Below, one piece after another: positions 24,301-42,300 of a DNA stretch of 64,000 nucleotides. Under the pieces are notes generated by a model. It made no database searches and was not told the DNA's origin. It worked only from the letters and a program-made list of their open reading frames with translations. Made by a program: the position numbers and the translations under genes. This stretch comes from Lingula anatina. Taxonomy: Eukaryota; Animalia; Brachiopoda. Where the stretch lies: positions 18,914,848 through 18,978,847 of the forward strand of contig CM120643.1 in NCBI GenBank assembly GCA_051362555.1. The letters run 5' to 3'. Within the stretch, counting starts at the first letter, position 1, and every line of letters begins with the position of its first letter.

Positions 24301-27300
24301 AAGTATGTCAGATTTTTAATTTTCATATTCATTAACAGGGTACAACGCAACAAAGGACATAAGTTAATATAATAACATATTTGTTAGATCTTTCTGAACT
24401 TACGTGCACAAACTTAATTTCATCAAGGTATCATTAACAGGCCTTCCCAACTACCAGACTCGGCACCTACGGGTCCAGTATAAACCGGTTTATCAGACCA
24501 CACTACCCGTTTTCAAGGTGTGTGTCAGATCGCATTACAGAGTATCAGCCACCACACCGATTTTGCCTGGTGCGCGATGTGATAGCAATGATCCTAAGCG
24601 GGGTTGGAAAGTAGTGCATCTCTTCTAGATTCATGCGCTGCTGCAATTTTCTCTGTTTATGCTAAAATCTGACAGTACCGCAATTTTTAACATAAAATTT
24701 AGGTTCGGACATAGCCAATGATGTTTTGTAAATAAGAACTTGCAAACTTATATATTAATTTAGAAAAGTAGACCTAATTTTGATAGCGGAAGCATATTCT
24801 GTCGGGGGTTAAATATTTTCATGACTACCGGGATGGACGAGATTGAGGGCAGGGGTAATCCTAGAGAGGGGTGAGAAACGTCCATTGTTCTCGTCAGCGA
24901 GGCTGTCCTTTTTCAGGGTTTGTACGCACGGACAGAAAACTTAAGTATTGTGGTAGTACTAGTAGATATCAGCCTGTAGTCTTGAACAAGCGCCTCGATG
25001 ACGAGTGAACAGTTGTCAAAAACAAAAGACCCAGGAGTGGTAGTTCAACTACTGTTCATGCGTGCCGCAACGACCAAACCTAATTGCTCCTGAAGGTCAC
25101 AAAACAATAACCGGTACTGACGGCTAGGCTCGTCTTAATCATATAAGTCGCGCGTTTCCACCCCCTGATTGAGGGAGTCGTCTGTTGTATTCATACGACT
25201 CCTACTTGACGAAAACGAGGCGCGATACCCGGATGACAGGTAGGCTTACAGAATTTGCGATAGGTTATGATACTCTTTTATGCGATCTGACACACACCTT
25301 GAAAACGGGTAGTGTGGTCAGATATACCGGTTTATTCTGGACCCGTAGGTGCCGAGTCTGGTAGTTGGGAAGGCCTGATTAACATGTTTTTAGTATCACT
25401 TAACATGTCTTTGGTTGCTGATATTGAAAATTCGGTCTTTACAATATCAGCAATCAAAGTTTGAACAGTACTCACAGCAATACCCGCAGAACAGGGCACA
25501 GTTGGTGGTGGCCCAGGACGGGTATGTCTTGCAGTCACTCTTGGTGTAGGCAGCACAGTTTGGCAATTTGTCTTCACACTTTTGGTAAGTAGGTGGTATC
25601 ACAGCTAACGGAAGTACATTTTTTATTCATGGTATCGAATTACGTATCTGTCAGCAATATCTTACATAATATATCTTTCAACGCTTTTCCAATTTCTACA
25701 ATTTCTAAATGTTTAATTTTATCGACATCACTTAAATTCATCAGGATATATCTGTTGTGATTACGGTTGTGGCTTGTATTGAATAAAGCGCCATCTATTA
25801 ATATGATGTTGCGCCACCTAGCAGTATGAGATAGACAGCGGAAAATTTGAGAGCTATCTTCACTCAACCATTCCACTGAGCGACCTCGCTAGAGAGACAC
25901 CTCCGTAGAATCAGCACCTCCTTTGTATATATTCTTCACTAAGCAAATATTCCTAAGTTCTTCCTACTAGACAGATCCAATTGGTACAGATTGTAGTGAC
26001 AGACTAGGAGCTTTTTGAAGTTTGCATAGGAGTCCAGACAGTGGAAATTTAAAGGTAAGTTGTTCATGCCCCTGATCAGGGTGTGTCAGCCGCCTTTGTG
26101 TATCACTATCATTTAGACTGTAGTTATCACGAGAATAAGTGAGTTTAGCCACTCGGGTTCACTTCATTTGGCGACAAGGAAAACCGAGCCCGTTTCCTGT
26201 TCTTTGATCAATTTTTGGTGTGAGAAATTTTTAAATTCCTTTGTCTGCCGCCATATTGGATAGGTGGGGGGAGTGAAAGTTTATTTAACTCCACGATCCG
26301 TGTGCAGGGGTGGCAATACTTTTTATTGTCCAGCATACCCTTGTACGTCCATTTGGTGGTATATGAAAGTAATGATTTTGGTTACTAAATTTAAAGATTA
26401 AAAGGAAATTCTTATATCTAAATTTGATTATAAAGTAATCTTACTTATTCTTGGGGATAACGTGAGGACCCCCAGACTAATTGGTAGTGATCCCCCATAT
26501 ATACTGCTTATATCTGTTTCTTAAAGGTAAGGGTTTATTTTTACTAAATTTATCTTAAAAAATTACCATATTTGGAGATTTATTCAGGGTATTGTTTCTT
26601 ATTTCTTTGTTTAGGGTTAAGTTTTTCGGGAATTTTGAATTAAATTTTTGAGGGAAGGTATTTTTGGGTTTACATTTATTTTCAATTTTTTACAAATTTT
26701 TAAGGTCAAAAGTGAACCTTTGACTTCATTTATTATATTTCCGGCTACATTTAGCCCAAGAACAGACAGCAGTATATATTTACATTGCCCGTTCCCTTGT
26801 CTTTTACAAAAGTACCCCTCAGCCCTATTTTTGACCCTTTTCCTGACCTTCTCGGTGAAACTGAAATTTCCGGATCACTAGAAGACAGGTCTTCTTATTA
26901 ATTCTCACACTAATTGTGGACAAAAAGTGCCTCTTTTACAGAAAATAGCTGGATTAGTGTGATCTTTTGTTATTAATTATGGCAATGGCAAAAGAATTTA
27001 TGGTGGATCTCACAAATGCTACCATAAATGATTTAATGAGAGTACCTGGCATAGGTCAGAAGCGTGCGGAAGCTCTTTTAGATTTCAGAGAACAAGGTAT
27101 CTGTTTGGATGAGAATTTTCTTCTACAAAAATTAGGGTCCAATCTTTCATCTAAAGTGTTCCCCTATTTTCATTTCCAAAATAATTTCAGACCATCTAAA
27201 TCTTTTGGGGGGGCCAGACCCAAAGAAATAAAAGAAAACTCTTCCCAATCTCGTCCAACAAAGATGCTTAATCCTGTTACCGAAGAGCCGACGCAGCTAT

Positions 27301-39300: not shown

Positions 39301-42300
39301 ATTCCTAAGTTCTTCCTACTAGACAGATCCAATTGGTACAGATTGTAGTGACAGACTAGGAGCTTTTTGAAGTTTGCATAGGAGTCCAGACAGTGGAAAT
39401 TTAAAGGTAAGTTGTTCATGCCCCTGATCAGGGTGTGTCAGCCGCCTTTGTGTATCACTATCATTTAGACTGTAGTTATCACGAGAATAAGTGAGTTTAG
39501 CCACTCGGGTTCACTTCATATCTTCATTTCGAGGAAGACTAAATATCAAGAAACTTGGAGCTAAAAAGGTGTATGGTTCGCTATTCTGTAAACGGTTTTG
39601 GATATGGTATGTCCTGGTGATTATGGAAAACTACTGCAATATTTAGGGTTTCCTTTTTGCTGTACCGGTATCTAATATATATTTTTATTATTGTAATTCT
39701 GAAAGTATTTCAAAGGCAGCAATATTATTCATTTACTCAAAACCTACTTGTGCACAATCCACAGAAGAGTTTACAGTTATCTGAGCTCCACTCGGGGTAT
39801 TGGTTACAGACGTCCTTGGCGTATCTGGAGCAATCCGCCTTGTCAACGCATGTTTCTACTGGTGGTTTCACTGAAATGTTAATATCAAGACTTTATGATA
39901 AATACCTGAACAACAAAATTACAAACCTCAAAACTTCAGAAACACTACATTTGAAATACTACATTTGAACGAAGCAGTGAATATATTTCCAGGATGTATT
40001 AGTTTTTAGAGTAAGGAGAGTATATTTATGTGTCTCGTGTTAAACCTTCACAATTAATTTACAAGTGTTTGAGTTATTTGATGGCTTAAATTTATGTGCT
40101 AGTTAACTATGCTACCTCTTCAGCATTTATTACTATTATTATTATGGTTCACATTCACATTAAAAAAAAAATATTTATTTGTATTTTATCCGTTTGGCAT
40201 TTTAACGTTGGCAAACAAACATATGGTTTTCCAAATAAATATAAATGTATTATAATTTGGAAATAAGTAATCCTAAGCACCACTGGCCCAGATAAAATAG
40301 CTTAAATTTTTAGCTAAGTTGTATAATGTCCGCCTTACCAGTGACTCCCGGTTTCGGACAGCTTTGGGCCTGCAATTGTGCCTTGATATTACCCAGGGCA
40401 CTGAAGCTGTCCACCTTAAACACGTGATCTGCATCCGGGTCATTACCGATGTTGTTAAGTTCTGCTTGGTTGATGCCCTTTCCAATACCAATCGCAAATA
40501 CCTAAGAGAGAGAGTGACCCTTTTTATCCCTGTTTCAATATTAGTGAAAGTCGACGTTCCCTTTATATTGTAACTCATACTAAGAATCCGCTGTGACACG
40601 CTTCCACTGTGTTTTCAGTTTTCAAAAACTTTAAGACCTCCGCTTAATTAATATAAATATGAAAAAAAGACTTAAACATGATAGAAGAATTTTTTCTCAA
40701 GTCGAAAGCAATTCCATCAGACTGCAAGCAAGAGCATTTTATGAGATTGAAAATTGCACACGCGGTTGGGGTTCGCATTAAATATAACACACTGCATGGT
40801 GACGTCACTTAACCTGCATTTATGATTCAGGTGCAAGTTTGTGAACAATCGCGTGGTAACAGGTCGCGCCACCTACCTCAATTCCTCTCGCCCGAGCTTT
40901 ATCAGCCTCCGCCTTGCTAAACTGGGCTCCATTGGTGGATGTTCCATCTGTTATCACAAAGAGCATATTTGGCACCGTGGGCCTGTCACCAGTACCGGTA
41001 GTAAACATACTCTCACTGGCATATTTTATGGCTTCAGAGATATAGGTACTGCCGCGTTTGTACGGTATTTTGTCAACGGCGTTAAGAACGTCGGGTTTAT
41101 TGGAATACTGGTTCAAGTGGAACTCGAGGTAAGGCTTGCTGTTGAACTGGAGAGCGCCTATTCTCACAGTCGTGGGACTCACGTCGAAGCCGTTCACGAC
41201 GTCCTTGACGAAGTCCAGAGTGGTGCGGAAGTTGGCGGTGCCGACACTTCCCGAGGAATCGATAACGAAGATGATGTCGGCCTTGGCCTTGCACTCTATA
41301 AATCAGGCAAAATCGTGCTGTGAAACCCCGCACGAAAACGAAGTAGATACTCCAGCGCAGTAGACTACTGCAATCATACTGCAAACATGCTTCAAATCTG
41401 CTTCGATTGGGGAGCTAATTAGCATATTTGAAACATGCTTCTATCATGCTGCAAATCTACTGCATTAATGCTCCTCTTCTGTACAACCCTATGTGATTTG
41501 TGAAGTAGAATTGCAGTAGGCTATACTGCATTTCTACTGCAAATATGCTCCACACCACTACTGCGTTAATGCTTCTTTGCTACTTCAATACTACTGCATT
41601 TTCGTGCGGGACCATGCTGTGTTTAAAGGCATAAAATAAATAGTAAAAACTGATTTCCACGGAAATTGCAAAATATTTCCTTAAAACCTTTATTAAAATA
41701 AAAATATATTAATGACACTAAATGGGAAACAGGCACAGGCCTTCCACTTACGATTTGCGGTGCTAACAGGTACGGTCGGCTTAGGCGCAGCTGAAAATGT
41801 AAAGATTTAAATAATCATATAAAGATACTCATCTAAAATCAATTTTAAATTTGCCGAAACAATATGTATGAGATTCGCTTATAAAAAGGTAGAGAAATGG
41901 TCGTTTGACTGTTCATTTGCATATACTTTTTCTCTAAATATTTAAATGCTGGCGATTAGACCTGAGAAAGGTGCAGGTTAAAGGGAGAAAAAGATTAAGT
42001 GATAAGACTTTTATAATGTAAATATTTGCATGCACCAATTATCATTTGGCAAATGTATTAACACAGAGGATCGAAACTGTATATTATATGATACATAAAC
42101 AGTTGTACCCCACCAGCTAGCTAAAGGAATAGCGGACAAGATCAAAAGATGCACTGGTACGTACCGTTACAGGCCGCCTGGGTCATCAGCCCCTTCATAG
42201 ACCCCAGGGCGTTGAAATTCTCAACAGAGAAAACGTGGGTGCTGTCGGGATCCGATGCAATAGCCTCAAGTTCGGACTGTTTGGCACCACTGCCGATACC

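Follow-up and report, generated by a model that had tools for sequence, protein, structure and literature searches.

Does a long terminal repeat (LTR) retrotransposon that carries three unusual DNA- and chromatin-related modules use them as one coordinated system, or were the modules acquired separately and for separate tasks? The question is raised by a 64,000-nucleotide stretch of the genome of Lingula anatina (GCA_051362555.1, contig CM120643.1, positions 18,914,848 to 18,978,847; hereafter, the window), in which a 13.8-kb Ty3/Gypsy element (25753-39518) encodes a helix-hairpin-helix (HhH) motif on Gag, a PHD finger on the integrase, and a TatD nuclease in a third open reading frame (ORF3). 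A first-pass annotation, whose coordinates for the element proved exact, had proposed that the three modules form a coordinated nuclear targeting and integration-repair system defining a distinct Gypsy lineage. The reading that we favor, and hold to be slightly on the probable side, is that the window contains a recent Ty3/Gypsy copy with a pol gene split by a nested transposon, belonging to a lineage whose three additional modules were gained stepwise and are used for separate jobs.

The presence of all three modules in the same element was confirmed by Pfam, with E values of 4.5e-6 for HHH, 2.5e-9 for PHD at the C terminus of the integrase, where no Chromo domain was found, and 8.8e-39 for TatD in ORF3. 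As relatives, we considered the best 80 of 591 metagenome matches to the Pol of the PHD-bearing clade, drawn from 25 of the 64 parts of the collection, together with 100 long Pol relatives. Pol trees were built with FastTree (147 rows) and IQ-TREE (54 chosen rows), leaving out rows that matched over fewer than 480 residues or did not reach from RNase H to integrase, and the two trees agree. In particular, the PHD-bearing Pols form one group of 16 rows (Shimodaira-Hasegawa-like approximate likelihood ratio test [SH-aLRT], 99) within a wider clade of 37 rows (SH-aLRT 100); the distinct Gypsy lineage that had been proposed is thus supported.

The distribution of the modules over these trees is nested. 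At the start of gag, HhH is clear in nine and weak in one of the ten clade loci that include this region (three of the nine clear loci contributed to the HhH profile), and it is found in 0 of 26 other such loci, 20 of which are placed outside the clade and 6 of which are unplaced. TatD follows pol in all seven PHD loci (split by an insertion in L017) and, among the PHD-less clade loci with 1.3 kb or more of downstream sequence, in five of eight; of the 22 outside loci with 1.5 kb or more, none has it. A conserved zinc/helical domain that precedes TatD in ORF3 occurs in 8/8 PHD-less clade loci and 6/7 PHD loci, and all three modules occur together in the window and in the five PHD-clade loci with both ends (L001, L003, L007, L017, and L030). 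Thus, HhH-Gag and an ORF3 with the zinc domain mark the broad clade and the PHD finger marks a subclade. Mapping the domains on the phylogeny therefore upholds their co-occurrence but not their inseparability; neither random assortment nor degeneracy in most relatives, the two outcomes that the first-pass annotation had named as fatal to its proposal, was found. In terms of order, the ancestor of the wide clade would have gained HhH and an ORF3 combining the zinc domain with TatD, and the PHD finger would have followed later, so that the three modules were likely acquired stepwise and not as one machine.

Some loci depart from the common arrangement. The ORF3 of L009 (3514-4680) encodes a GDSL esterase ahead of the zinc domain, and no TatD is present within 7.1 kb downstream, while L008 and L022 show the zinc domain alone, with 540 and 615 bases remaining. 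Outside the clade, the ORF3 slot is occupied by C2H2 proteins or unknown ORFs; in nine outside loci (L029, L047, L050, L058, L063, L070, L075, L078, and L080), ORF3s of 438 to 605 residues have no Pfam match. Two PHD-less clade members (P0032 and P0033) carry a Macro domain (PF01661) in Pol.

The same distribution bears on the proposal of a single machine, in which HhH would bring the capsid to DNA, the PHD finger would pick the nucleosome, and TatD would repair the integration site. It draws support from the joint occurrence of the modules in the window and in the five both-ended loci, from the basic patches of ORF3, and from the description of TATDN1 and TATDN3 as apurinic/apyrimidinic endonucleases and 3' exonucleases (PMC10085689). 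However, TatD is intact in five elements without PHD and is not seen in three clade loci, and the persistence of elements with one or two of the three modules argues against an obligate, coordinated system. Furthermore, repair after integration requires 5'-flap removal, fill-in, and ligation, and a 3'-5' exonuclease would be ill suited to the 5' flaps at the junctions. Since the described TatD exonucleases act in the 3'-5' direction (PMC10085689), integration repair becomes less likely, and direct support for it was not found; the nearest host relative, TATDN2, is reported to break down R-loop RNA (PMC10711561). We therefore regard the single machine as quite unlikely.

The features of the element and their coordinates are collected in Table 1.

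Table 1. Features of the Ty3/Gypsy element, in window positions
Feature	Position	Strand	Remarks
Target-site duplication, 4 bp	left 25749..25752, right 39519-39522	+	
5' LTR, 414 bp, TG...CA	25753..26166	+	Identical to 3' LTR
Splice donor AG/GT within LTR	26053..26060	+	Motif; 5 X4 RNA reads exit element here
Primer-binding site (PBS)	26169..26180	+	After 5' LTR
gag ORF: N-terminal HhH, PNMA-like capsid part, one CCHC knuckle (29013-29054)	26979..29432	+	
ComEA-like HhH motif	27009..27086	+	Pfam PF00633, E 4.5e-6
pol, first piece: aspartic protease and first part of reverse transcriptase (RT)	29384..31670	+	Pfam
Candidate -1 frameshift heptamer	29423..29429	+	Just upstream of gag stop
Nested nonautonomous DNA transposon, 1302 bp, 14-bp terminal inverted repeats, 5-bp duplication	31671..32972	.	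Within RT
pol, second piece: RT end, RNase H, integrase (HHCC, DDE core, GPY/F-like motif), PHD	32973..35697	+	
PHD finger, PHF2/PHF8/BPTF type	35530..35670	+	Cage residues Tyr, Tyr, Met, Trp
Predicted splice acceptor, pyrimidine tract and CAG directly 5' of ORF3 ATG	35708..35724	+	
ORF3, 851 residues: N-terminal region, low-complexity linker with 75-bp repeat, basic patch, zinc/helical domain, TatD	35725..38280	+	
Basic patch RKKKRKPK, resembling a nuclear localization signal (NLS)	36796..36819	+	
Conserved C2H2 and helical domain ("MID"), no known family	36943..37419	+	C, C, H, H, P invariant, 46 rows
Class II (HxH) TatD nuclease domain, TATDN2-like	37459..38274	+	Six metal ligands all present
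Polypurine tract	39085..39104	+	Precedes 3' LTR
3' LTR, 414 bp	39105..39518	+	

The membership of the element in Ty3/Gypsy is indicated by its direct LTRs with a target duplication, a PBS, and a polypurine tract, and by the succession of gag and a pol with the order protease, RT, RNase H, integrase. Pfam recognized HHH, PNMA, and a weak CCHC on gag. The PBS, which we take to be tRNA-Ser-like, has a counterpart in L001, where a PBS-like site likewise follows the LTR end. A heptamer identical to the candidate frameshift site lies by the gag stop in 4/5 PHD-clade loci versus 0/5 PHD-less loci, a comparison of position only and not of frame. The only AATAAA of the LTR (25782) lies upstream of a TATA-like motif (25926), the reverse of the usual order.

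The two LTRs are mutually identical, which points to a recent insertion. This copy is nevertheless not autonomous: the 1302-bp insertion within RT, overlooked in the first-pass annotation, splits pol, so that no whole Pol can be made and the copy is disabled. RNA reads from other copies, with varied flanks, stop at both borders of the nested transposon, which is thus a multicopy family and presumably hAT5-like.

Since ORF3 is annotated in RefSeq as an ordinary uncharacterized Lingula gene (XP_013398407, with the same ATG at 35725 and 2 of 851 residues different) and this copy is broken, the additional domains might be taken for neutral passengers, or for host genes misread as parts of the element. 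This reading is, in our view, highly improbable. ORF3 lies inside the identical LTRs and follows pol in 12 unrelated loci; it codiverges with Pol, and its active site is kept at 25 to 45% identity, which together largely refute the passenger explanation. In particular, Pol and TatD distances are correlated (Spearman 0.87, p 0.0002, in 11 elements), and each of the two trees separates PHD-bearing from PHD-less elements (100/100 for Pol and 94/94 for TatD). The ORF3 profile retrieved at least 150 clusters at 50% identity with E below 1e-94. Public annotations call such ORF3s host genes in Lingula, Pinctada, Ruditapes, Saccostrea, Pecten, Ostrea, and Lytechinus; the lineage is an old one of marine invertebrates.

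The TatD domain retains the sequence features of class II. The HxH motif and the Glu, His, His, and Asp metal ligands are invariant in 12/12 cases, and a full TatD domain is present in 171 of 186 ORF3-like proteins, 156 of which keep all six ligands. The predicted model of the 466 C-terminal residues (predicted local distance difference test [pLDDT], 90.8) matches TatD barrels, and the TIM-barrel fold is evident from the comparison of the TatD model with 6l25 (E 2.7e-14, TM score of 0.82 by target). The zinc/helical domain, which the first-pass annotation had overlooked, is also folded with confidence (pLDDT 91.8), and Foldseek returned no match for it at E 0.001. The best VIA match, an XRE-type protein (Z 3.7, root-mean-square deviation 3.9, 71 aligned), was taken as no match. 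ORF3 is not a membrane glycoprotein, given the TatD fold and the lack of a signal peptide and of a clear membrane segment (best 19-residue hydropathy, 1.66). Searches of the viral collection returned no relative of ORF3 or Pol, and the C-terminal half of ORF3 had no Atlas match. The NLS-like patch reported earlier on ORF3 is indeed present, and patches with at least six Lys/Arg in eight residues occur in 18/54 relatives versus 2/54 shuffled sequences; a nuclear location of ORF3 is likely.

With regard to origin, a tree of 84 TatD domains places the element group (67 rows, 96) as sister to nine proteins (84; join 91), among which is a fish protein with the Atlas name TatD DNase domain containing 2. 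Element TatD is about 29% identical to this fish TATDN2 protein, and the element profile scores it at 181 bits, compared with 146 for YcfH, 102 for TATDN3, and 89 for TATDN1. Judging from these sequence comparisons, TatD was likely captured from host TATDN2. The TatD proteins P0152 to P0158 and P0167, most of them with a CCHC knuckle, group with fish TATDN2 and are likely the invertebrate host TATDN2.

TATDN2 has been reported to degrade the RNA of R-loops, acting on RNA both as a 3' exonuclease and as an endonuclease (PMC10711561), and to be expressed in the germline, with fish Tatdn2 being needed in germ cells (PMC12709183). Because human TATDN2 degrades R-loop RNA and its fish counterpart is needed in germ cells, hybrid removal is our first choice for the role of ORF3, which would be a spliced, nuclear, TATDN2-derived nuclease removing RNA from RNA:DNA hybrids; its likely targets would be R-loops on transcribed copies of the element itself or in the active chromatin into which it inserts. 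This is the least certain step of the mechanism, and we consider it possible, although somewhat short of probable.

Two other roles can be weighed against hybrid removal. ORF3 might be packaged in the particle and aid reverse transcription, either as a second RNase H-like activity or by 3' trimming of primers or cDNA ends. A precedent exists in the DEDDy 3'-5' exonuclease ORF3s of the bdelloid elements Juno and Vesta, for which processing of the ends of element RNA has been proposed (PMC5408684), and the 3' exonuclease and endonuclease activities of TATDN2 on RNA (PMC10711561) would suit such a task; however, the element has its own RNase H, and ORF3 is separate from Gag-Pol and carries NLS-like patches, which makes packaging rather unlikely. 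Alternatively, ORF3 might act in counterdefense, destroying silencing RNAs or other host defense nucleic acids with the zinc domain providing the targeting. The zinc domain is more constant than TatD and is paired with GDSL in L009, and TatD diverges faster than integrase (54% versus 82% identity between L010 and L011, with synonymous sites saturated), as in a conflict. Nevertheless, faster divergence fits relaxed constraint equally well and the congruence of the Pol and TatD trees shows no rapid swapping; we deem counterdefense unlikely.

For the PHD finger, the best PDB matches are PHF2, BPTF, KDM7A, and PHF8, with CXXC1 also close. PHD fingers of the PHF2/PHF8/BPTF type bind methylated histone H3 lysine 4 (H3K4) through a Tyr/Met/Trp cage. 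The C4HC3 ligands and the aromatic-cage residues are present in the element; among 21 element PHDs, Trp is retained in 19, Met in 18, and the first aromatic residue in 18. It is therefore likely, as far as sequence can tell, that the PHD finger tethers the integrase to methylated H3K4; the integration complex would be held at H3K4-methylated nucleosomes as chromodomains do for heterochromatin. A distant protein outside the PHD group (P0097) has a precomputed PHD, and an unrelated Gypsy element (L032:4100-5635) carries a PHD at the N terminus of Gag (Pfam E 2.1e-5), a second placement of this type of reader.

On Gag, the N-terminal HHH match scores 26.7 bits against a Pfam cutoff of 24, whereas HHH_3 remains under its cutoff (23.7 against 27 bits), with one HhH motif aligned, and TIGR01259 and TIGR00426 are both under theirs. 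The top PDB sequence matches of this region are ComEA (8dss/8dfk). HhH likely grips DNA for Gag, and it would provide a sequence-independent hold on cDNA or chromatin.

The element family is transcribed. In the stranded run X4, 30/30 bins are covered, and nearly all reads outside the nested transposon are in the sense orientation; from the same study, two further runs contributed 6 and 7 reads. At both positions at which ORF3 differs from RefSeq, the X4 reads carry the RefSeq letters and thus represent a different allele or copy. Precisely at the LTR donor (26054/39406), five reads of this run depart from the element into sequence that the window does not contain; an LTR of this family may serve as a promoter for a host transcript. 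The poly(A) runs X1 and X2 are weighted toward ORF3, which fits either a subgenomic RNA or plain 3' bias. The sequence about 100 bases past the ORF3 stop (38386-38440) includes an A tract of 32 bases and a run of TA, which could give rise to internal oligo(dT) priming.

As for the route by which ORF3 is expressed, 8/16 elements have an acceptor-like site no more than 10 bases from the ORF3 ATG, versus 176/2710 other ATGs (p 3e-6), and the predicted ORF3 mRNA would join the LTR donor to this acceptor. Translation of ORF3 by readthrough from pol, with which it is in the same frame in the window, was judged unlikely, since ORF3 begins with an ATG of its own preceded by an acceptor motif; the gap of 7 to 436 bases between the pol stop and ORF3 in relatives also counts against it.

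The element lies between minus-strand exons, VWA domains among them, and on the opposite strand to them. The exons at 11500-24000 and 40800-49200 apparently belong to one large gene with Cys-rich repeats, Gly/Thr-rich repeats, and several VWA domains. A 940-bp element resembling a miniature inverted-repeat transposable element (24438-25377), with 110-nt inverted arms (95%), ends 375 bases left of the 5' LTR. Two 300-nt direct repeats (51943-52242 and 55505-55804; 86% alike and 3.56 kb apart) are possibly the LTRs of a further element.

A number of observations weigh against stepwise gain for separate jobs, or against the parts of the mechanism proposed above. A second hybrid RNase may be redundant in an element that retains its own RNase H, and TATDN1 and TATDN3 work on DNA (PMC10085689). 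The TATDN2 join, at an SH-aLRT of 91, is not starred, and the bacterial rows of the TatD tree were eight long proteins, with TATDN1 and TATDN3 left out of the tree. Metal ligands are lost in 15/171 TatD domains, no zinc domain is present in L015, and HhH is missing from two gene models of PHD-bearing Gag-Pol (P0007 and P0012). The second cage position is Tyr or Trp in only 6/21 PHDs and mostly Asp in the rest. In seven of nine runs, at depths of 0 to 6, none of the listed reads spans a junction between the LTR donor and the ORF3 acceptor, and the copy in the window, a single site, lies between exons of a large opposite-strand gene and not visibly at a promoter. The nesting itself is drawn from the selected share of the metagenome matches described above.

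A more specific scenario would combine the modules in sequence: the clade would have captured TATDN2 as a germline R-loop RNase, the integrase of the PHD subclade would dock at R-loop-rich, H3K4-methylated promoters, and ORF3 would clear the RNA to leave duplex DNA as the target. We consider it rather improbable. If true, it would describe a retroelement with its own R-loop resolvase that targets active chromatin, a mirror image of the chromoviruses. More generally, nature offers here a series of LTR elements that carry none, two, or three of the chromatin/DNA modules, and sister clades in the existing oyster, scallop, sea urchin, and brachiopod genomes can be compared to test how the PHD finger affects the choice of insertion site. 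TatD joins the enzymes that occupy the env slot, the zinc domain is added as a confident fold for which the structural searches gave no match, and ORF3s annotated as host genes can mislead counts of gene families.

Reader domains on integrases, fusions of PHD with retrotransposon proteins, and enzymatic ORF3s have been described before; the nesting of the three modules, the tree congruence, the link to TATDN2, and the zinc domain are added here. Our literature search, which covered sources other than Repbase and subscription journals, returned no paper on an element with a TatD ORF3 or HhH-Gag. Named Gypsy clades of molluscs and annelids, MolGy among them, are given in PMC6238403.

In the errantiviruses, such as Drosophila gypsy, env is expressed from a spliced mRNA. 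The element resembles them in that pol is followed by a further ORF, which opens with its own ATG behind a predicted splice acceptor, and in that a donor lies close to the 5' end; different from errantiviruses, its ORF3 is a predicted nuclease with neither a signal peptide nor a clear membrane segment. The chromoviruses carry a chromodomain for H3K9me, whereas here the PHD is of the type for H3K4me, an active mark, and the element lies far from the fungal chromodomain rows in the FastTree tree (three rows: P0088, P0090, and P0095). The likeness resides in a histone reader that ends the integrase after a GPY/F-like motif, as in MAGGY (bioRxiv 10.1101/2021.11.30.470311). An outside element, L061:2281-2940, has a chromodomain at the end of its integrase (E 1.6e-11) and is also far from the fungal rows.

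The cnidarian fusions of retrotransposon proteins with a PYGO1/2-like PHD (bioRxiv 10.1101/2021.11.30.470311) likewise join an H3K4me-type PHD to retrotransposon proteins in marine invertebrates, whereas the present PHD is closest to PHF2, BPTF, PHF8, and CXXC1; the available text of that paper mentions neither TatD nor HhH, and its supplementary list may include the present clade. With TATDN2 and the class II TatD proteins (PMC10085689, PMC10711561, and PMC12709183), the ORF3 nuclease shares HxH, the Glu/His/His/Asp ligands, the TIM barrel, and a long N-terminal extension with an NLS-like patch. TATDN2 is its nearest host group by both tree and profile score; unlike TATDN2, however, it is encoded by a mobile element and preceded by an element-specific zinc domain. 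Finally, Juno and Vesta of bdelloid rotifers (PMC5408684) also place in the env slot a nonenvelope enzyme, a DEDDy exonuclease or a GDSL esterase, with intact catalytic residues, and a GDSL ORF3 recurs in the present relative L009. Different from Juno and Vesta, the nuclease here is a TIM barrel of the TatD type, to which a new zinc domain is fused; it is accompanied by HhH-Gag and has been vertically inherited through a large clade instead of being gained repeatedly.

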